Shown here piece after piece: positions 8,661 to 30,206 of a stretch of 64,000 bases of DNA. The notes beneath the pieces are model-generated. The model ran no database searches. It was not told the origin of the DNA and saw nothing but the letters and a program-made list of their open reading frames with translations. The stretch lies in assembly GCA_963678315.1 (NCBI GenBank), contig OY782781.1:736001-800000 (forward strand), given 5' to 3'. Made by a program: the position numbers and the translations under genes. Every line of letters starts with the position of its first letter. Positions within the stretch are counted from its first letter, which is position 1. This DNA is from Candidatus Cloacimonadales bacterium (GTDB taxonomy: Bacteria > Cloacimonadota > Cloacimonadia > Cloacimonadales > JAFGVF01).

Positions 8661-9862
8661 TAGAACAGAGATAACACTGATTATACTGATAAAGATGATA
8701 GTATAAATTGAAAAGTTAAAGATGGGTGAAAGCCTTTTCTGTAGATACACACGGTCGTGTGTATAATGAAGTACATGTAAATGTACGAATAATTAAAAAT
8801 ATAACTGGGAACGCTGGCTGCTAGCCGGCTCTTAAGTCAGGCGAAGACTGATCTAGCCGGCTAAAGAATAAATATATAGTGTGAAAAATGGTGCTTCAGA
8901 AAGCCTTTCTGTAAGTCATAGGGCGAAGCATGCTTAAAAATAGATGTTTTGATAGAACACTGATGACACAGATTGAGCAGATGAAGATGGTTAAGTTTTA
9001 AGTTTTTTGAAGGTCATTCTAAGTAGGGTAAACTGGAAGAATCAAACCAGAAAAATAGAACACAGACAACACTGGATTATACTGATAATGATTTTACTTG
9101 AAGAAGAATTAATTTAATGATAGAAAGTTTTTTTTAGAAGATATACCAAGTAGAATTAATAATTATGTTTTATCAGTGGTTTTCAGTCTAATCTGTGTCA
9201 TCAGCGTTCTATATATATTTAGTAGGGAGGGTAAATGAGTGATTATCTTCATTCTGAATTAACAGATAAAATAATCAATGCATTTTATGAAGTATATAAT
9301 ACTTTAGGTTATGGTTTTCTTGAAAAGGTTTATGAAAAAGCTATGATAAATGAATTAAAATCTAAAGGATTAACTTGTTCTGAACAATATAAAATCGATG
9401 TATTCTATAAAAATAAACCTATTGGTGAATATTATGCTGATATTGTTGTTAATGATTTAGTTATATTAGAATTGAAAGCAAATGATTCTTTAGTTAAAGA
9501 GAATGAATATCAATTGATAAATTATCTTAAAGCCACAAATTTTGAGATTGGTTTGTTGTTTAATTTTGGTAAGAAACCAGAAATAAGAAGAAAAATTTTC
9601 ACAAACAATCGAAAATAGAAAGATAGAACACAGAAAACACTGATTATACAGATAAAGATGATTAAAAATATTAACTATGGACCTAAAGCAAAAGAATATT
9701 GGGAGAAATCAGATTTTCTCTGTTTAATCTGTGTCATCAGTGTTCCATATGCAGACAACACTGATCAGGCAGATAATAAGGGTTTTAATTAATCATATAT
9801 TTAAAAAAAGCTATTTAAAGAAAGCGGTGATTTTCAGTTTAATCTGTGTCATCTGTGTTCTA
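8661..9862. mobile_element. GxxExxY cassette 1 with multiple inverted TAGAACAC-type arms
   Basis: Left arms at 8661, 8953, 9056, 9624; right arms at ~9184, 9726, 9834; perfect 20-bp inverted pair 8955-8974 / 9726-9745. Confidence 0.55.
9235..9618 (+). CDS. GxxExxY protein (PD-(D/E)XK nuclease-like)
   Basis: GFLEKVY motif; YYADIVV...ILELK; GGGAGG RBS. Confidence 0.92.
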   Translation: MSDYLHSELTDKIINAFYEVYNTLGYGFLEKVYEKAMINELKSKGLTCSEQYKIDVFYKNKPIGEYYADIVVNDLVILELKANDSLVKENEYQLINYLKATNFEIGLLFNFGKKPEIRRKIFTNNRK

Positions 9863-11309: not shown

Positions 11310-11864
11310 CCACTAAGACACAAAGTCTCTAAGAATTTATCCACTAATACACACTAATTGACACTAATGAAGAAAGATCTAATATATAATTTTACCACAA
11401 AGACTCGAAGGCACTAAGTTAATTTATATTTATGAGAATTATAGATATTGATGAATTAAATATTTTAAGTAAGAAGGTTGTTGATGCAATATTTAAGGTT
11501 CATAGGGAACTAGGACCTGGATTACTTGAAAATATCTATGAAAAGTGTTTATGTATTGAGTTGGCTTCTAAAAATTTAAAATACAGTAATCAAGTTGCTC
11601 TACCAGTTTTTTATAAAGGCAAAGATATTGGTTTGGATTATAGACTTGATATCTTAGTTGAAGATTCAATTATTATTGAACTTAAATCTGTTGAGAAAAT
11701 GAATCCTGTTTATAAAGCTCAGTTGTTAACATATTTGAAACTATCTAACAATAAACTAGGTTTTTTGGTAAATTTTAATGTACCTTTAATAAAAGATGGT
11801 ATTAAAAGAATTATTAACTAACTTAGTGGCTTAGAGTCTTTGTGGTGAAAAATAATTTAGTGGT
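11309..11864. mobile_element. GxxExxY cassette 2 bounded by inverted repeats
   Basis: 27-bp inverted pair 11394-11420 / 11820-11846 (25/27) plus outer ACCACTAA/TTAGTGGT at 11309 / 11857. Confidence 0.6.
11432..11821 (+). CDS. GxxExxY protein (PD-(D/E)XK nuclease-like)
   Basis: GLLENIY motif; YRLDILVE..IIELK; QLLTYLKL. Confidence 0.92.
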   Translation: MRIIDIDELNILSKKVVDAIFKVHRELGPGLLENIYEKCLCIELASKNLKYSNQVALPVFYKGKDIGLDYRLDILVEDSIIIELKSVEKMNPVYKAQLLTYLKLSNNKLGFLVNFNVPLIKDGIKRIIN

Positions 11865-20416: not shown

Positions 20417-21329
20417 GAAAGCACCTGTTTTATTAATAACATTCAACCGTCCTGATACAACAATAAAAGTTTTAGAAAAAATAAAAGAAGCTAAAGTTAG
20501 CAAGCTATACATTTTTAACGACGCTCCACGGAAAGGAAATGAAAATGACCAAAAAGCACGTTCTGAAATCAAAGAAATGTTAAATATAATTGATTGGGAT
20601 TGTGAACTAAATATTTGGTTTTCAGATATCAATTTAGGTTGTGGACCTGGTCCTTCTTCTGCAATTACATGGGCTTTTGAGAATGAAGACCGTTTGGTTA
20701 TTTTAGAAGACGATTGCGTACCAGCTATTCCTTTCTTTAATTATTGTAATGAGCTACTTGAAAGATACAAGAATGATACACGTATATGGATTGTTAGTGG
20801 CAATAATTATTCTGAAGAAAAAAAAGTTTCAGATTCTGATTACTTTTTTTCTACCTATGGCCATTCCTGGGGGTGGGCAACATGGAAAAGATGTTGGGAA
20901 AATTTTGATTTAGAAGTTAAACAATTTCCTAAATATTTCAAAGAAAAGAGGTTTTACGATGCTTTTGGTAGTAAGAAAGAAGCCAACTTTTTTGCTAAAA
21001 TTCAAAAAAAAATATTTGAAGATAAAACTATTTTTGGTCATGTTTGGGATTTTCAAGCAGGTTTTATGGTAAGAGCGAATGGTGGCTTATGTATTAATCC
21101 AAGTAAGAATCTAGTCACAAATATAGGATTTGTTGGTACACATTCAAGCACAAAAAATAAATTTCATAACAGGCCTGTGGATAAGAATTATAGAATTACA
21201 AAGCATCCAGAATTTATTTTGGTTAGCAAAGAATATGATGAGTATCATTTTAGAACCCATTGGAAAAAAATGAAACCTAGTTTGTTAGATAGGGTTTGTA
21301 TTAAAATAAGAAAAATAGTGAAAATATGA
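20409..21329 (+). CDS. GT-A nucleotide-diphospho-sugar transferase (HlpA-like)
   Basis: FNRPD, NLGCG, ILEDDC, WGWATW, NLVTNIGF. Confidence 0.8.
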   Translation: MNEKAPVLLITFNRPDTTIKVLEKIKEAKVSKLYIFNDAPRKGNENDQKARSEIKEMLNIIDWDCELNIWFSDINLGCGPGPSSAITWAFENEDRLVILEDDCVPAIPFFNYCNELLERYKNDTRIWIVSGNNYSEEKKVSDSDYFFSTYGHSWGWATWKRCWENFDLEVKQFPKYFKEKRFYDAFGSKKEANFFAKIQKKIFEDKTIFGHVWDFQAGFMVRANGGLCINPSKNLVTNIGFVGTHSSTKNKFHNRPVDKNYRITKHPEFILVSKEYDEYHFRTHWKKMKPSLLDRVCIKIRKIVKI

Positions 21330-22576
21330 CAAGATTGTCAAAATTCAATTTTATTGATTACATAGTATTTGCGACTTTAACATGTACATTGTTTAATGTA
21401 ATTGTTACTAAACTACCTCCAGGGATAGGGAGCGTAAGATTTTTTTGGGGGCCATTAACTATCATTACGTTATTATTATTTGCAAATTCTATTTATAGTG
21501 TCTCTCCTGTAAAACAACTGATGCTGTTTGGTTTTGTAGTTATGCTTTTATTTAATATGATATTTTGGAGAAATTTATCAGATTGGAATAGAAGAAATTT
21601 TTTAGATGATTTCTATAATATTTTTTTATACACTATAATAATATCGTACTATATAAGATCAAAAAAAGTTGAAAACCTATATTTGATATCAAAAATATCT
21701 TTTATTTACATAATAATTACTGCAATTATGACAAATATTGGTTTATTTTTTGACCCTTTAATAATAAGGGATTCTGCTGTGGGTTTTGGCACTAACGTAC
21801 GTCAAAAGGAAATTTACAACTTATATGGGACAGCTCGCTATGGATATGCACAAGCTTTTGTTTTATTGATACCATTTTGTTTTTATTCTCTTAAACATAA
21901 TAAAAACTCTAATGTAAATAAAAGAATCATGTCAGTCTGTATAGCTTTAATTGTAATAACAACATTAAGATCACAGGTTTTTGCAAATATTATTAATCTA
22001 GTTTTTGTATTTATTTTTTCAATAATTTCAATAGAAAAACGAAAGAGTATGGTGTTACTTATCACTCCTGTAGTTTTGATTGTCATTATTTTACCTAAGA
22101 CAATTTATAGCGATATTATACGTTCATTTACTAGGTATTTTTCAGAAGATTCTAATACATTTCTCAAACTTAATGATTTTGCTGATTTTTTTATTGACCC
22201 AGAAATTGATATGTCCACCGGTACTGGTGGAAGGGCTGCAAGATATCCCTTGTTATGGGAAGCTTTTTTACAAAGCCCTATTGTTGGACACTCATACCTT
22301 GATAAAGGATTAGATATAGAAGCAGGGGGGCATTTGTTTTGGATGAATAGGCTAGCTCATTTTGGGTTAATAGGCTTCTCTATGTTAGTTCATTCTCTTT
22401 ATACCACATTCAAAACTATTAAAAGGAACATAATCAAAAACGAGGGTGTCTATTATTATTTTCTTTCTATAATGTCATTTTTACTATTTGGTTTAATGAA
22501 AAATATTGCAGGAAGAGAGATTTGGGCAATAATATTAGTTGTTATTCCTGGATTGTATTTGAGAAAGAAAAGATAG
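21326..22576 (+). CDS. Polytopic membrane protein, probable O-antigen polymerase/ligase (Wzy-like)
   Basis: About 10 TM segments; R..LW..F..SPIVG and GH..W...LAHFGLIG periplasmic-loop pattern. Confidence 0.7.
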   Translation: MTRLSKFNFIDYIVFATLTCTLFNVIVTKLPPGIGSVRFFWGPLTIITLLLFANSIYSVSPVKQLMLFGFVVMLLFNMIFWRNLSDWNRRNFLDDFYNIFLYTIIISYYIRSKKVENLYLISKISFIYIIITAIMTNIGLFFDPLIIRDSAVGFGTNVRQKEIYNLYGTARYGYAQAFVLLIPFCFYSLKHNKNSNVNKRIMSVCIALIVITTLRSQVFANIINLVFVFIFSIISIEKRKSMVLLITPVVLIVIILPKTIYSDIIRSFTRYFSEDSNTFLKLNDFADFFIDPEIDMSTGTGGRAARYPLLWEAFLQSPIVGHSYLDKGLDIEAGGHLFWMNRLAHFGLIGFSMLVHSLYTTFKTIKRNIIKNEGVYYYFLSIMSFLLFGLMKNIAGREIWAIILVVIPGLYLRKKR

Positions 22577-22588
22577 GAGAGTAAAGCA

Positions 22589-23596
22589 ATGTTCAAAAAT
22601 AAAAAATTATTAATTACTGGGGGTACTGGTTCATTTGGAAACGCAGTACTAAGACGTTTTATCAACACAGATATTGAAGAGATTAGAATCTTCAGTAGAG
22701 ATGAGAAGAAGCAGGATGATTTAAGAAAGAAGCTTAATAATCCTAAAGTTAAATTTTACATTGGTGATGTTAGGGATTTAAGTTCTGTTAATACAGTTAT
22801 GAAAGATGTGGACTATGTTTTCCATGCTGCAGCTCTAAAGCAGGTTCCTTCTTGTGAATTTTTCCCTATTGAGGCAGTGAAAACCAATATTCTTGGTTCA
22901 AACAATGTAATGCAGTCTGCTATGATGCACGGAGTAAAGAAACTTATTGTACTTTCTACTGACAAAGCGGTTTATCCGATTAACGCTATGGGCATTTCCA
23001 AGGCTATGATGGAGTTGGTTATGGTGGCTAACTCTCGTAATGGTGGCGAAGAGACTACTCTCTGCGGAACTCGTTACGGAAACGTAATGGCTTCACGTGG
23101 TTCCGTTATTCCATTGTTCGTAGACCAAATCAAAGCAGGGAAGCCAATCACAATCACAGATCCAAACATGACTCGTTTCATGATGACTCTGGATGATGCT
23201 GTGGACTTAGTCTTATTTGCTTTCGAGCATGGTAAGCAAGGTGATAGATTTGTTCAAAAAGCTCCAGCTTGTACAATTGAAGTTCTTGCAAAAGCTTTAA
23301 AAGAATTGTATAAAGCAGATAATGAAATTAAGTTCATTGGTACACGTCATGGAGAAAAGCTCTATGAATCTCTAGTAAACAGAGAAGAAATGCTTAAGGC
23401 AGAAGATATGGGAGACTATTATAGAATTCCAGCTGACACAAGAGATCTTAACTATAACAAATACTTCTCAGAAGGTGATTCTGGTATTGAAAAGATCACA
23501 GAATATACTTCTCATAATACCCACCGAATGGATGTGGAAGAGACTAAGAAGTTACTGCTTAAGTTAGAGTTTATAAGGGAAGACCTAAATCTTTAG
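22589..23596 (+). CDS. wbjB: UDP-GlcNAc 4,6-dehydratase/5-epimerase (WbjB/FnlA/CapE)
   Basis: ITGGTGSFG, SRDEKKQ, HAAALKQVPSCEF, STDKAVYPINAMG, RYGNVMASRGSVIP. Confidence 0.92.
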   Translation: MFKNKKLLITGGTGSFGNAVLRRFINTDIEEIRIFSRDEKKQDDLRKKLNNPKVKFYIGDVRDLSSVNTVMKDVDYVFHAAALKQVPSCEFFPIEAVKTNILGSNNVMQSAMMHGVKKLIVLSTDKAVYPINAMGISKAMMELVMVANSRNGGEETTLCGTRYGNVMASRGSVIPLFVDQIKAGKPITITDPNMTRFMMTLDDAVDLVLFAFEHGKQGDRFVQKAPACTIEVLAKALKELYKADNEIKFIGTRHGEKLYESLVNREEMLKAEDMGDYYRIPADTRDLNYNKYFSEGDSGIEKITEYTSHNTHRMDVEETKKLLLKLEFIREDLNL

Positions 23597-24225
23597 CCAC
23601 AAATAGCACAGATAAGAAATAATTTTTATCCACTAATTACACAAATAACACGAATTAGAAGATAGTAAGATATTTTAGCCACGAATAACACAAATCTACA
23701 CAAATAAGAAAAATATATTATTATAATGCTAGATGTATATCATAAAGAGTTATGTTATAAAATTATAGGGTGTGCATTTGAAGTGTACAATACTCTTGGA
23801 CCAGGTTTTCTTGAAAAGGTCTACGAAAAAGCCCTATTGCATGAGTTTGCTATAAACAATCTAAATGCAGAATCACAAGTACCATTAAAGATTATATATA
23901 AAGATACAGTTGTTGGAGATTACTTTGCTGACATCATAGTTGATAACAAAGTAATACTAGAATTAAAGTCATGTACAACAATAAATAAATCTCATCAAGC
24001 TCAATTAATAAATTATCTTGTTGCTACGGGAATCAAGGTAGGGTATGTTTTGAACTTTGGTAATGATAATAAACTTGAAAATATAAGAATTGTTAAATAG
24101 TATTATTTGTGAAGATTTGTGCTATTCGTGGCAAAAAAGTCTTCTTTAAATTAGTGTAATTTGTGAAATTCGTGGATAGTTTTCTTTATTGTTTATCAGT
24201 GTTAATCTGTGCTATCCGTGGCTAA
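23593..24225. mobile_element. GxxExxY cassette 3 with three nested inverted-repeat pairs
   Basis: 23593-23613/24205-24225 (19/21), 23627-23656/24149-24178 (26/30), 23678-23707/24103-24132 (28/30). Confidence 0.65.
23726..24100 (+). CDS. GxxExxY protein (PD-(D/E)XK nuclease-like)
   Basis: GFLEKVY; YFADIIVD.KVILELK; QLINYL. Confidence 0.92.
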   Translation: MLDVYHKELCYKIIGCAFEVYNTLGPGFLEKVYEKALLHEFAINNLNAESQVPLKIIYKDTVVGDYFADIIVDNKVILELKSCTTINKSHQAQLINYLVATGIKVGYVLNFGNDNKLENIRIVK

Positions 24226-24243
24226 GAAAAAAAAGGATTTAAA

Positions 24244-25350
24244 ATGAAAATTGGCATAACAGGACAAGCTGGCTTTATCGGCTCTCACCTATACAACAAC
24301 TTAGGCTTGCATGAAGGTATTGAAAGAATCCCCTTTGAAGATGATTTCTTCAAATCTGAGGAATCATTAGATAATTTTGTTAAGCAGTGCGACGTTATTG
24401 TTCACTTAGCGGCTATGAACCGTCATAATGACCCTGAAGTAATTTATAATACAAATATAGAATTAGTAGAAAAGATAATTGCAAGTATCGATAGATGTGC
24501 AACCAATCCACATATTATAATGTCTTCTTCAACTCAAGAGACTCGTGATAATTTATATGGTAAGTCTAAGAAAGAAGGTAGAGAGAAGTTTGTAGCATTT
24601 GCTCAACAAGGAAAGTGTTATTTTACAGGCTTGGTGATTCCTAATGTTTACGGTCCTTTCGGAAGGCCTTACTATAATTCAGTAACATCAACATTTTCTC
24701 ATTTGATAGCTAATAATAAAGAAGTTGAAATTCAGATTGATGCAGAGCTTGAAATGATCTACGTTCAGGATCTGTGCCAAGAAATTATTTCTGTAATTAA
24801 AAATAAAGAATACACTGATGAAAAGCTTCTGCCTTATACAGGCAAATCACTAGTTTCAGATCTAAGAGATAAGATAAAAGCTTTCCATGAAACCTATATT
24901 TCTGGCATAATCCCAAAATTTGAAAACAGATTTGATTTAACACTTTTTAATACCTATAGATGTTACCTTCCACAGGAATATTTTCCTGTAGATTATACTA
25001 AGCATTCTGATAATCGTGGCTCTTTCGTGGAAATTATTAAGAGTTCAGGGCAAGGACAATTCTCCTTCTCAACGACCAAACCTGGAATAACCAGAGGGAA
25101 TCATTATCATACTAGAAAAGTGGAAAGGTTTGCAGTTATTTCTGGAAAAGCTTCTATCAAGCTTAGAAAAATTGGAACAGACCAGGTTATAGAATATATT
25201 CTTGATGGAGAAAAACCAGGCTATGTAGATATGCCTATTTGGTATACTCACAACATCACTAACATTGGTGATGAAGAACTTATAACACTCTTCTGGATTA
25301 ATGAGTTCTATAATCAAGAAGATCCTGATACTTTCTACGAAGAAGTTTAG
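24244..25350 (+). CDS. wbjC: WbjC/FnlB/CapF reductase with C-terminal cupin
   Basis: ITGQAGFIG, HLAAMNR, YGKSK, D.RGSF, RGNHYH..KVERF, YTHNITN. Confidence 0.88.
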   Translation: MKIGITGQAGFIGSHLYNNLGLHEGIERIPFEDDFFKSEESLDNFVKQCDVIVHLAAMNRHNDPEVIYNTNIELVEKIIASIDRCATNPHIIMSSSTQETRDNLYGKSKKEGREKFVAFAQQGKCYFTGLVIPNVYGPFGRPYYNSVTSTFSHLIANNKEVEIQIDAELEMIYVQDLCQEIISVIKNKEYTDEKLLPYTGKSLVSDLRDKIKAFHETYISGIIPKFENRFDLTLFNTYRCYLPQEYFPVDYTKHSDNRGSFVEIIKSSGQGQFSFSTTKPGITRGNHYHTRKVERFAVISGKASIKLRKIGTDQVIEYILDGEKPGYVDMPIWYTHNITNIGDEELITLFWINEFYNQEDPDTFYEEV

Positions 25351-25436
25351 TGTCATACTTTAGCCTTAAGGGTCTCCTTGAAAAAAAGGCGTTTTTTCAA
25401 AGAGGCAAGTAAGGGCCTAGTAATAAAGATTAAAAC

Positions 25437-25692
25437 TAGCCACAGATAACAAAGATAAAAAAAGAAGAAAATATTTTAGCCACAGATAACACGGATTTGC
25501 ACTGATAAAATGCTTAATAAACATCATAGCTTGTTTCATGTTATTTATAGTTAATTTACGAGTATTTTTTTACAGAAAGTTATGTTGGTATTAATTTACT
25601 ATCCATATTTGTCTTTATCTGTGTTTATCAGTGTTATCCGTGGCTAAAAGATGGATTGTCTTATTTGTGAAGATTTGTGCTATTTGTGGCTA
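25437..25692. mobile_element. Empty (gene-less) element made of two nested inverted pairs of the GxxExxY-flank family
   Basis: 25474-25509/25614-25649 (30/36) and 25437-25456/25673-25692 (16/20). Confidence 0.6.
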
Positions 25693-25707
25693 AATAAAGG
25701 AATTATT

Positions 25708-26826
25708 ATGAATAAAATAAAAGTTATAACAATTGTCGGAACCCGTCCTGAGATCATCAGACTTTCCGAAGTAATGAAATTATTAGATAAACACACGAAT
25801 CACGTGACTGTTCATACAGGACAAAACTATGATTTCGAACTGAACGAGATCTTTTATCGCGATTTAGAATTAAGAAAACCAGACTATTATCTTGGAATCA
25901 ATACTTCTTCTTTAGGTCATGTTTTAGGTGAAACCCTTATTAAAGTGGAAGAAGTTTTTAATAAAGAAAAACCTGATGCTGTCTTAATTTTAGGTGATAC
26001 TAATGCATCTATAGCTGGAATTATTGCTAAAAGAATGAAGATACCAGTATTCCACATGGAAGCAGGTAACCGTTCTTTTGATTTCAATGTTCCTGAAGAG
26101 ATAAACAGACGTATCATCGACCATGTTGCGGATTTCAACTTAGTTTATACTGAAAATTCACGAAGACACCTTCTCTCTGAAGGACTTCCTCATAGACATA
26201 TCTATGTGACTGGTTCTCCAATGTTTGAAGTTTTAAATAAGAATATTGAGAAAATTAAGAATTCTGATATTTTAAAGAAATTAGAACTCAAGGAAAAAGA
26301 GTATTTTATAGTTTCAACCCACAGAGAAGAAAATGTAGATAATGAGGAAAATCTAAAAGAGATTGTAAATACTTTAAACGCTCTTACTGTAAATTATGAC
26401 CTTCCGGTTATTGTTTCTACTCACCCAAGAACTAGAAAGCGATTAGAGATGCTCAAAGATATTTCTATAGATAGTAGAATTCAATTCCTTAAACCATTTG
26501 GTTTCTTCGACTATAATAAATTACAAATGTCTTCTATCTGTGCAATCTCCGATAGCGGAACCATAAGTGAAGAATCATCAATGCTTAAGTTTCCTGCCGT
26601 GACTATCAGAAACTCACTAGAAAGACCAGAAGCTATGGACTATGGCTCAATTATCTTGACAGGTTTGAAAGCTGATGTAGTTCTTAACTCAGTAAAACTT
26701 GTACTTGAGGAACCAATGAACTTTAATAAATGTCCAGAATATCAAACAGATAATACATCATACCGTGTCCTCAAGATAATCATGGGACTAAGCGGATTGA
26801 AGAATAGATGGATGGGGATTAAGTGA
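25708..26826 (+). CDS. wbjD: UDP-sugar 2-epimerase, non-hydrolysing (WbjD/FnlC type)
   Basis: VGTRPEIIRL, HTGQNYD, LGDTN, HMEAGNR, DSGTISEE; follows wbjB-wbjC; ATG 25708 after AAAGGA. Confidence 0.85.
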   Translation: MNKIKVITIVGTRPEIIRLSEVMKLLDKHTNHVTVHTGQNYDFELNEIFYRDLELRKPDYYLGINTSSLGHVLGETLIKVEEVFNKEKPDAVLILGDTNASIAGIIAKRMKIPVFHMEAGNRSFDFNVPEEINRRIIDHVADFNLVYTENSRRHLLSEGLPHRHIYVTGSPMFEVLNKNIEKIKNSDILKKLELKEKEYFIVSTHREENVDNEENLKEIVNTLNALTVNYDLPVIVSTHPRTRKRLEMLKDISIDSRIQFLKPFGFFDYNKLQMSSICAISDSGTISEESSMLKFPAVTIRNSLERPEAMDYGSIILTGLKADVVLNSVKLVLEEPMNFNKCPEYQTDNTSYRVLKIIMGLSGLKNRWMGIK

Positions 26827-27980
26827 AGAGAATTACAATTATTACAACTTGTTGCTTCCCTTATGGAGGACCAGCTGAAACATTAGTTCGAAATCTATCA
26901 ATTGGGATTTCTGCTAATGAATGTAATGTCAATGTAGTAAGATTTAGAGGAAAAAGATACACAAAAAAAAATGATGTTGATATAGAAGATAGTAATTATC
27001 TATTTAACAAACCTTTTGATAGTGAACTAGGTAAAATTTTAGAATTAATGCTAAATATACTATACATTCCGATATTTTTGCTTTATCTTAAATTTTTTAA
27101 GAATAAACAAGCAATTATTTTGTATGGTTTTGAGTATACTTATCAAATAATTCCTTTCATAATGTTCTCGAAAATACTGAAGATAAAATGTATTAGGTTT
27201 ATAACTGATCATTATAGAACAACATCTATAGTACCTGTTTGGTGGAAATATCCTAAGTTTATTTCATATATGATTCAAAAAAAATATGTTGACAAATTTC
27301 TTGATGGTGTTGTTGTTTTAAGCTCTTTGCTTTATAAACAATGTCAGGCGAGAGGAGTAAAAAAGGGAAAAATTATTTTGATTCCACATTTCATTGAGAT
27401 TCTAAAGCATACTGTAAAAAGGAAAACATACAATAATAACGTTAATGTTTGTTTTTGCGGAACAGTTGTTGAAGCTAATGGGATTAGTGATTTAATAGAG
27501 GCAATGAACATTGTTCAAAAGAAGTATCAAAATGTTACACTTAAGATAATTGGTAGAGTTGATAAGCAGTATAAAAATAAGTTAGTAACTTTATCAAAAA
27601 AAGAAATACATTTTACTGGGTATTTACACAAAAAAGAAGTAGAAGAAGAACTTGAGAATAGTGATATTTTAATTAACCCTAGAAAATATAGTTTAGCTGC
27701 TGAAGCAGGATTTCCAACAAAATTGGGTGAATATTTTTCATCAAAGAAAGCAGTAGTATCTACAAAACTTGGAGACTTAAAAGACTATTTTATTGATGGT
27801 AAAGAGCTGGTATTTGCTGAACCTGATAAGCCTGTTTCATTAGCTGAAGGTATTATGAAATTGATAGAAGATGAAAATTTAAGAACATATATTGGTCAAA
27901 ATGGTTATAATTGGGCAATAAAAAATCTAAATAACATAACTAATTCAAAGAAATTATTAGACTTTATTGACAAATTGTAA
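26823..27980 (+). CDS. Glycosyltransferase family 4
   Basis: GFPTKLGEY, VVST..GD GT-B motifs. Confidence 0.85.
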   Translation: MKRITIITTCCFPYGGPAETLVRNLSIGISANECNVNVVRFRGKRYTKKNDVDIEDSNYLFNKPFDSELGKILELMLNILYIPIFLLYLKFFKNKQAIILYGFEYTYQIIPFIMFSKILKIKCIRFITDHYRTTSIVPVWWKYPKFISYMIQKKYVDKFLDGVVVLSSLLYKQCQARGVKKGKIILIPHFIEILKHTVKRKTYNNNVNVCFCGTVVEANGISDLIEAMNIVQKKYQNVTLKIIGRVDKQYKNKLVTLSKKEIHFTGYLHKKEVEEELENSDILINPRKYSLAAEAGFPTKLGEYFSSKKAVVSTKLGDLKDYFIDGKELVFAEPDKPVSLAEGIMKLIEDENLRTYIGQNGYNWAIKNLNNITNSKKLLDFIDKL

Positions 27981-29808: not shown

Positions 29809-30206
29809 ATGGAGTCTGTAGATAAACAAAAGATGGCACGTCTAAATAATCTAAGTAAGAAAATTGTAGATTGTTTGTATTGTGTGCATAGAGAACTAGG
29901 TCCAGGTCTGCTTGAAAGAGCCTACCATCTTAGTTTATGCCATGAGTTAGATTTACGGAATATAAAATATCAAAATGAAGTTTATGTTCCAATAAACTAT
30001 AAAGATATGAGAATTGAATCAGCATACAGATTAGATTTGTTAATTGAAGATGAGATAATTATTGAGCTGAAAGCTGTGAAAAAATTAAATCACTATTTGC
30101 ATCCCAATTATTGACATATTTGCGATTAAGTAATAAGAAATTAGGTTTGTTAGTAAATTTCAATGTTAGCAATATTGGCAAAGGTATTAAAAGAATTATT
30201 AATTGA
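29809..30206 (+). pseudogene. Frameshifted GxxExxY gene
   Basis: GLLERAY and YRLDLLIE..IELK in frame; the C-terminus ([28 protein letters not shown]) continues in another frame after ~30091, ending TGA at 30204-30206. Confidence 0.85.

Follow-up and report, generated by a model that had tools for sequence, protein, structure and literature searches.

Nested inverted repeats around a GxxExxY nuclease gene in a Cloacimonadales polysaccharide operon: a probable composite of hairpin insertions

Introduction

Two described systems come closest to the element reported here: the hairpin-forming doublets built from repetitive extragenic palindromic (REP) units known as REPINs, together with their REP-associated tyrosine transposases (RAYTs), and the intervening sequences (IVSs) of 23S rRNA that carry an open reading frame (ORF). 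The element lies in a stretch of 64,000 nt from a Candidatus Cloacimonadales bacterium (the window; G000:C1:736001-800000), where three nested pairs of inverted repeats surround the third copy of a GxxExxY gene, in the order A-B-C-gene-C'-B'-A' (positions 23593-24225), at the junction between fnlA and fnlB of a polysaccharide operon. This nest belongs to neither system. It does not resemble a stem built for regulation so much as an insertable cassette, of a type that is widespread and apparently undescribed.

Bertels & Rainey (2011; PMC3116915) describe REPINs as over-represented extragenic repeats, arranged as inverted doublets that form hairpins, which cluster around a small gene for a DNA-cutting enzyme, with several subtypes and their cognate genes in one genome. 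The locus studied here is alike in these respects, as over-represented extragenic inverted doublets form hairpins and flank the gene, but its enzyme is of the PD-(D/E)XK type (PF13366) and not a Y1 HUH transposase, its gene behaves as an insertion polymorphism, and the IS200-like genes of the same genome carry a different repeat. A REP unit is a G+C-rich palindrome of 20-40 nt with a conserved GTAG or CGTC tag, whereas the arms described here start with TAGCCAC or ATAGAACAC and consist of phased 7-nt CACRRAT words repeated every 9-10 nt.

The IVSs of 23S rRNA with an S23p/PF05635 ORF, an example of which is described in PMC4990558, are inserts of approximately 0.4-0.5 kb with a small ORF and complementary ends that form a long stem, and are sporadic and horizontally spread. 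The nest shares these features, and a PF05635 gene with the same packaging occupies the fnlB|fnlC junction of two relatives. Unlike these IVSs, however, it is located between the protein-coding genes fnlA and fnlB and not in rRNA helix 25 or 45 (no rRNA match was found within the window), its ORF encodes a nuclease and not a four-helix bundle, and its arms are made of phased words in multiple nested copies.

Two further classes of elements show a partial likeness. In miniature inverted-repeat transposable elements (MITEs) and in mosaic repeats of the bacterial interspersed and neisserial intergenic types (BIME/NIME), terminal inverted repeats likewise bound short non-coding cores, are stacked or nested in spacers, and have their modules mixed; for the elements described here, however, no DDE transposase partner or target-site duplication was found, and the full-length members hold a conserved nuclease gene. 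Free-standing homing endonuclease genes are similar in being small selfish nuclease genes between intact conserved genes, which are distributed patchily and leave some sites unoccupied in relatives. Such genes home to a single allelic site and, to our knowledge, are not bracketed by arrays of inverted repeats, whereas many unrelated junctions are occupied here and gene-less hairpins are the likelier targets.

No published description of a cassette combining a GxxExxY gene with repeats was found in the literature searched, in which GxxExxY was named in incidental mentions only.

Structure of the nest

The presence of three inverted-repeat pairs in mirror order around GxxExxY copy 3 had been proposed from the sequence alone (the original prediction), and was confirmed by a repeat search. 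On the left side (+ strand for all arms), the outer arm A (23593-23613) matches A' at 19 of 21 positions (90%) and contains two CACRRAT words behind TTAGCC, the middle arm B (23627-23662), of the TATCCAC type with three words, matches B' at 30 of 36 positions (83%), and the inner arm C (23667-23707), which is the cassette's own arm and reads TAGCC-CACGAAT-AA-CACAAAT-CTA-CACAAAT, matches C' at 36 of 41 (88%). On the right side, C' (24103-24143) starts 2 nt past the GxxExxY stop codon and is followed by B' (24143-24178) and by A', whose core (24205-24225) forms part of a three-word arm reaching back to approximately 24193. The size first given for A/A' was thus recovered, while B/B' and C/C' turned out to be longer than the 26/30 and 28/30 initially proposed. 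The six arms are furthermore not three unrelated sequences but copies of one direct repeat, in which TAGCC is followed by CACRRAT words, two or three in number, with a spacing of 9-10 nt. The pattern is not due to chance: an 18-nt arm core had seven matches in the window (at most 3 mismatches; 0.04 expected), five of which fell within 23596-24222.

Folding of the RNA from 23580 to 24245 yielded a minimum free energy of -171.9 kcal/mol (z -8.8, 20 shuffles), with 105 base pairs joining the two flanks: 25 between A and A', 32 between B and B', 41 between C and C', and seven outside these ranges. The gene is indeed placed in the loop of an interrupted stem, although the length of this stem is about 100 bp and not the ~80 bp originally suggested. 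Pairing was best between mirror partners for B/B' (24 vs. 15.5 and 12.5) and C/C' (31 vs. 18.5 and 20), and barely so for A/A' (17 vs. 16).

As had been noted before, arm A overlaps the stop codon of fnlA (wbjB) and A' ends shortly before the start of fnlB (wbjC). The stop codon TAG at 23594-23596 is in fact supplied by arm A, and the end of A' at 24225 lies 18 nt before the fnlB ATG at 24244. The sequence AAAGGATTTAAAATG upstream of fnlB was kept in relatives, to the right of their insertions, as seen in the junction sequences. Since it preserves both the stop codon upstream and the ribosome-binding site downstream, the element would be tolerated at this junction.

The inner part of the nest, C-gene-C', is a standard GxxExxY cassette, with a promoterless gene for a predicted minimal PD-(D/E)XK nuclease (copy 3, 23726-24100, + strand, 124 aa) that is co-oriented with the operon. 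The plan of these cassettes comprises inverted arms of two to four phased CACRRAT words, with the left arm 20-50 nt 5' of the start codon and the right one immediately 3' of the stop codon. The cassette sits in the loop of a gene-less B/B' hairpin, which in turn lies inside A/A'.

The GxxExxY protein

The 124-aa protein scored well above the family cut-offs for GxxExxY/PDDEXK_3 membership, both for PF13366 (6.6e-42; 143 bits, cut-off 22) and for TIGR04256 (3.5e-41; 140.2 bits, cut-off 35). Its GxxExxY motif reads GFLEKVY, and the PD-(D/E)XK set E...D...ExK plus QxxxY is present. Residues E30, D69, E79, K81, Q93 and Y97 were invariant in seven sequences; among 84 sequences E30, E79, K81 and Y97 were invariant, and D69 and Q93 were conserved in at least 90%. 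Judged by these residues, the protein would be a minimal PD-(D/E)XK nuclease with its catalytic residues intact.

An AlphaFold2 model (pLDDT 95.2) showed a restriction-endonuclease-like alpha/beta fold. Its best structural matches were 3ijm and the Cas4 structure 4ic1 (both Z 8.0), followed by Hjc (Z 6.5), all of them PD-(D/E)XK proteins of which none stands out, and lambda exonuclease was also among the many weak neighbours. Foldseek and VIA-align returned generic PD-(D/E)XK neighbours only, which did not reveal whether the enzyme is of the resolvase, the Cas4-like or the restriction type. PADLOC reported only a weak similarity to Cas4 (E 6e-4), PHROGs gave no match for the protein, and a PDB sequence search returned nothing at E <= 1. 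The family is very large, with 15,987 clusters matched by this single protein (50% identity clusters, E <= 0.001). Two-domain proteins accounted for 26 of the best 150 relatives, which hints that GxxExxY proteins may act as dimers; a homodimer prediction scored 0.00 and was used neither for nor against a dimer. The only functional statement on the family found in the literature is "Unknown", in a superfamily survey of 2012.

Association between GxxExxY genes and arms

All five GxxExxY loci of the genome lie among such arms, with word subtypes that differ from locus to locus. Inverted flanks scoring at least 20 were identified for nine of 305 small ORFs in the genome, namely the four intact GxxExxY genes, the single PF05635 gene, three IS200-like Y1 genes and one unknown. 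This amounts to all four intact GxxExxY copies, compared with 5 of the 300 remaining small ORFs.

The association was also examined across phyla. A sample with one genome per species gave 286 relatives, of which the best 80 were kept, none being more than 60% identical. According to the record titles, these loci come from Atribacteria, Fusobacteria, Desulfobacterota, Ignavibacteria, Bacteroidota, Acidobacteriota, Nitrospirota, Dehalococcoidia, Planctomycetota, a bacterium of the candidate phyla radiation (CPR) and a nanoarchaeon. With 250 nt evaluated on either side of the gene (68 of the 80 loci were evaluable), an inverted flank match at z >= 4 was found in 50 of 68 loci, and a score of at least 20 in 42 of 68. 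The arms at these 50 loci are built of CAC-N-GA-type words, whose period is 9 at 22 of the loci and 10 at 18; they often begin with TAGCCAC or ATAGAACAC, and the right arm tends to begin within approximately 10 nt of the stop codon.

The layout of 73 cassettes was inspected. One arm on each side (L-gene-R) was the commonest arrangement (21/73), while the LLL-gene-RRR nest was found only once, at the present locus. As to orientation, 46 of 58 loci have both neighbours running with the gene and two have both running against it, and at the fnl loci each of the 11 GxxExxY genes points the same way as its operon.

In 60 relatives, the excess of triple words tracked the number of GxxExxY genes (Spearman 0.64, the kin not being independent), and an excess of at least 15 was observed in 22 of 33 genomes with the gene versus 7 of 27 without it. 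Arm C was 88-94% identical at 18 places in G010, which belongs to another genus, while the gene was at most 71% identical across 30 relatives.

The repeat family in the genome

The double-word pattern had 98 matches in the genome (3-8 in three shuffles), grouped in 39 clusters, and the triple-word pattern had 131 (0-3 in shuffles). Many of the clusters are gene-less and consist of short hairpins, nested pairs, or tandem runs of hairpins of approximately 100 nt, and mosaic repeat clusters mix different modules. One gene-less element of the same family is located in the fnlB|fnlC spacer of the window (25437-25694, + strand; fold z -4.8), whose 104-nt core is enclosed by an outer arm pair (25437-25456 / 25673-25692) and an inner one nested within it (25471-25509 / 25614-25652). 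Arm C is of the same subtype as arm a' (25661-25694).

Two further gene-less elements (G000:C1:562685-562905 and 942160-942380) combine a TAGCCACGAAT-type left arm with a ATAGAACAC-type right arm around a shared core (…ctaaacaattaaacctctcaac…). These mixed arm types around a shared core show that arm modules have been recombined between subfamilies.

The genome also contains three genes for 150-aa IS200-like Y1 transposases (PF01797; G000:C1:1107162-1107614, 1104220-1104672 and 599366-599818), flanked by inverted G+C-rich REP-like hairpins whose modules are intermixed with CACRRAT arms in mosaic clusters. This suggests that a classical REP/RAYT-type system is present in the same genome. RAYT/IS200 transposases were considered as mobilisers of the CACRRAT arms and rejected: the Y1 genes carry a different, G+C-rich repeat and are thus not obvious movers of these arms.

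The same junctions in relatives

FnlB was present in 10 of the 60 relatives, and the occupancy of the neighbouring junctions was found to be variable. The fnlA|fnlB junction was empty in three loci (2, 5 and 15 nt), held gene-less arrays in four (71-327 nt) and a GxxExxY gene in three, while fnlB|fnlC was empty in three loci (3, 12 and 28 nt), held GxxExxY genes or remnants in four and a PF05635 gene in two. The inserted GxxExxY proteins are 31-63% identical to copy 3, whereas FnlA is 60-91% identical, which indicates that the junctions were filled repeatedly and independently.

The original prediction had proposed a search of relatives for variants of the wbjB-wbjC junction. Empty forms, forms with gene-less arms and forms with other cassettes were all found, whereas the triple mirror order was absent. 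The layouts encountered were LL-core-R, L-core-R-gene-R, [L-core-R]-gene-[L-core-R] and hairpin-hairpin-gene-hairpin, and these differences imply that the triple mirror order is not conserved. In a MAFFT alignment, the two left arms at fnlA|fnlB of G003 and G010 were aligned to B and C of the present locus and the right arm to A', although arm orthology remains ambiguous in such an alignment because all arms are alike. In G007, a 71-nt hairpin insert (L003:1429-1501) displaced the fnlA stop codon, so that the frame runs approximately 18 codons into the repeat.

The two PF05635 genes at fnlB|fnlC, annotated as "23S rRNA intervening-sequence protein", are found in G007 (L003:2671-3033, E 4e-40) and G021 (L007:2662-3027, E 1e-39), within inverted arrays of GAGTGAT/GAGTAAC words. 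The PF05635 gene of the genome itself (G000:C1:995256-995648) lies within inverted arrays of ATTGATAAT-type words. The packaging of the PF05635 genes is the same as that of the GxxExxY genes, with short words of their own.

A length variant in metagenome contigs

Metagenome run X1 carries the stretch identically and may be its source. Runs X2-X4, from another study, represent related strains in which the cassette occupies the same position. One contig of X3 joins position 23677 to 24143 and thereby skips exactly the 465 bp of C-gene-C' (23678-24142, + strand; C core, gene and C'), the candidate mobile unit, while A, B, B' and A' are kept. The joint is matched by 30 nt on each side, at a depth of 11.5 compared to 12.6 for the contigs of the occupied branch, and both flanking 30-mers are unique in the genome holding the window, even when 3 mismatches are allowed. 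The occupied-branch contigs end at 24172/24173, others start at 24143/24144, and the match of an X2 contig stops at 23677; this geometry at 23677/24143 is as expected from a graph bubble with k=31. The arms break short-read assemblies at 23677, 24143 and 24172. The X3 contig provides moderate evidence for an allele A-B-loop-B'-A' that lacks the inner cassette, the grade being set by the fact that it is a single short contig. Between strains, differences were counted at 2 of 378 positions of the cassette core and at 18 of 324 positions of the fnlA end.

Origin of the nest

The nest is probably a composite, left behind as selfish hairpin DNA entered the fnlA|fnlB junction several times in succession. 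A nested insertion history had already been put forward in the original prediction, and it is supported by the cognate pairing of B with B' and of C with C', by the variable junctions in relatives and by the X3 contig. The nuclease, probably a dimer, would recognise the phased words or the hairpin or cruciform that they form, and would cut there; host repair or replication would then copy cassettes or gene-less hairpins to new sites, with existing hairpin loops and gene junctions as the preferred targets. The long RNA stem is, according to this explanation, a by-product. The combination of conserved words, mismatched spacers, arms that are better kept than the gene, and mismatches without a G.U bias (see below) favours recognition of the words by a protein travelling with them.

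A more far-reaching proposal, which we put forward tentatively and regard as possible rather than probable, is that GxxExxY nucleases and phased-word inverted arms constitute a self-propagating cassette system across phyla, in which a dimeric nuclease would recognise the word arrays of its own arm subtype, or the cruciform or hairpin extruded from them, and break gene-less hairpins, the gene then being copied in by means of arm homology ("hairpin homing"). Such homing would yield exactly the nested A-B-C-gene-C'-B'-A' pattern. The PF05635 cassettes, including the classical 23S rRNA IVSs, would then form a sister lineage with the same packaging. If GxxExxY proteins are indeed the enzymes of hairpin cassettes, a very large family would gain a function, a common "mosaic" type of intergenic repeat in many phyla would be explained, and the long-puzzling intervening sequences of rRNA would be tied to a wider class of elements. 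The arms also mark sites of remodelling in polysaccharide loci.

Several observations weigh against an origin of the nest by insertion of nuclease-bearing cassettes. Nine of the 73 cassettes inspected have the gene between two complete hairpins (R-gene-L, including copies 1 and 5 of this genome), 19 of 73 have no arm fitting the word pattern, and 18 of the 68 evaluable loci failed the bracket test; with a layout this loose, the element is not a rigid transposon with terminal inverted repeats. In seven of the 60 relatives, which have many arrays, no GxxExxY gene was detected, and in five others the gene is accompanied by few arrays. Near-identical copies of the 465-bp cassette, which would point to recent movement, were found neither in 30 relatives nor elsewhere in the genome, the best gene match being 71%. 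The 465-bp unit has unequal ends, with GCCAC... at its left and ...GTGGC plus 10 nt at its right. Neither the nest nor this unit has direct repeats at its ends that would mark a target-site duplication; a TA-type duplication would be indistinguishable there from the palindromic TTAGCC...GGCTAA ends. The "empty" form is one 60-nt-type contig from one run, and could represent a paralogous hairpin in that strain. No GxxExxY protein is known to us to bind or cut these arms, and the arms could also serve a host function, with the genes being drawn to them.

Alternative explanations

It is unlikely, in our view, that the nest is an IVS-like RNA element whose stem is under selection, the operon transcript folding into the stem of about 100 bp, which RNase III would cut, so that the fnlA and fnlB messages are separated and the cassette RNA is released. 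The strong prediction of the stem (z -8.8) is in line with such an element, as are the PF05635 gene inside inverted arrays at the neighbouring junction of G007 and G021 and the nearly constant co-orientation of the cassettes, which are therefore transcribed with the operon. A precedent is given in the parts of PMC4990558 on ORF-bearing IVSs, where elements with a PF05635 ORF are bordered by a 28-bp stem that is cut by RNase III in vitro. The same idea, a functional stem for RNA processing, had been offered in the original prediction, but could not be upheld: the mirror order is not kept at homologous loci, the nest is found in 1 of 73 cassettes, and the mismatches within arms show no sign of selection for pairing in RNA. 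In 54 arm pairs, the transition mismatches were split into those that are G.U-compatible on the sense strand and those that are not, and no bias of G.U over A.C was observed (101 vs. 99, p 0.94; transversions 408). Moreover, conservation is seen in the word sequence, with frequent mismatches in the spacers of 2-3 nt, the gene stands outside the hairpins in some layouts, and Rfam returned no family for the element at the gathering threshold and none for 23400-25800 at E <= 1. Cutting of the stem by RNase III as a side effect is nevertheless plausible.

We likewise assign a low probability to a partnership of the REP/RAYT kind, in which a resident, vertically kept nuclease would spread or maintain gene-less hairpins in trans, the nearby arms being its products and not the ends of a cassette. 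Genes are found between complete hairpins or in tandem hairpin arrays as well (copies 1 and 5), gene-less copies far outnumber genes, and the numbers of genes and arrays are correlated, all of which would be expected from such a partnership; the clustering also resembles that of REPINs around RAYT genes as portrayed in PMC3116915. However, at the same junctions the gene comes and goes between relatives, some sites being empty and others holding alleles that are unrelated, the contig variant lacks both the gene and its arms, and five paralogues with different arm subtypes occur in one genome.

A chance accumulation in a permissive spacer of REP-like repeats, moved by IS200-like/RAYT-type transposases or by slippage and functionally unlinked to the gene, is very improbable: although three Y1_Tnp genes of the genome are flanked by inverted repeats and its mosaic clusters have mixed modules, the Y1_Tnp flanks are different, G+C-rich hairpins without CACRRAT words, GxxExxY genes of many phyla are bracketed by words of this same architecture as CACRRAT, and the contrast between intact GxxExxY copies and other small ORFs (4/4 vs. 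5/300) is not accounted for. Phase variation is common in surface-polysaccharide loci, and the element sits in such a locus and has one length variant, but a recombination switch, toggling fnlB-fnlC expression and hence the surface sugar by programmed inversion or excision, is hardly credible, since there is no transposase or recombinase gene in or beside the element, no joint in inverted orientation for 23593-24225 among the matches listed, the same cassettes lie between unrelated housekeeping genes elsewhere, and a scan of 23400-25800 found no excess of promoter-like sites that could be moved (12 vs. 11.8 expected). Terminator-like sites in the same scan numbered 1 against 1.0 expected.

Genomic context and other copies

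The genome holding the window consists of a single contig of 2.99 Mb (32.8% G+C). Within the window, one long polysaccharide locus extends from approximately 7,600 to 43,400 with every gene on the + strand, and a type-IX-secretion sorting domain, which is in keeping with the Cloacimonadota as a broad group, is also encoded. The nest is preceded by fnlA (22589-23596, + strand), a wbjB/capE-type UDP-GlcNAc 4,6-dehydratase/5-epimerase gene (Pfam Polysacc_synt_2 7e-106) whose NCBIfam FnlA score of 574 bits is below the equivalog cut-off of 730, and followed by fnlB (24244-25350, + strand), a wbjC/capF-type reductase gene with Pfam and NCBIfam matches.

Four of the five GxxExxY loci of the genome are located inside this polysaccharide locus. 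Copy 1 (9235-9618, + strand) shows the R-gene-L layout mentioned above, copy 2 (11432-11821, + strand) lies within a 42-nt inverted pair (86%) of a variant word type, and copy 4 (29809-30197, + strand), which is split by a frameshift and has weak flanking inverted repeats, looks like a decaying cassette. Copy 5 (G000:C1:1941850-1943800) is found between hairpins and not in a loop, with tandem complete hairpins of approximately 100 nt on both sides (about six before the gene and at least ten after it).

Repeat arms can yield spurious ORFs and start codons and may thus mislead gene callers, an example of which is fnlC (wbjD). Its start is most likely the ATG at 25708, while the longest ORF begins 19 codons earlier and passes through arm a' (MDCLICEDLCYLWL...; window 25651-25707).

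In the related strains of runs X2-X4, fnlA-fnlC are well covered, whereas the wzy-like and glycosyltransferase genes to both sides of them (21000-22335 and 27012-27679) are hardly covered; the fnlABC block therefore seems to be common to otherwise different polysaccharide loci. Directly 3' of fnlB, a 52-nt palindrome at 25363-25415 forms a terminator-like hairpin centred on A6/T6. It represents a separate high-copy repeat, with approximately 135 blastn matches genome-wide and an approximately 10-fold contig depth in all four runs.

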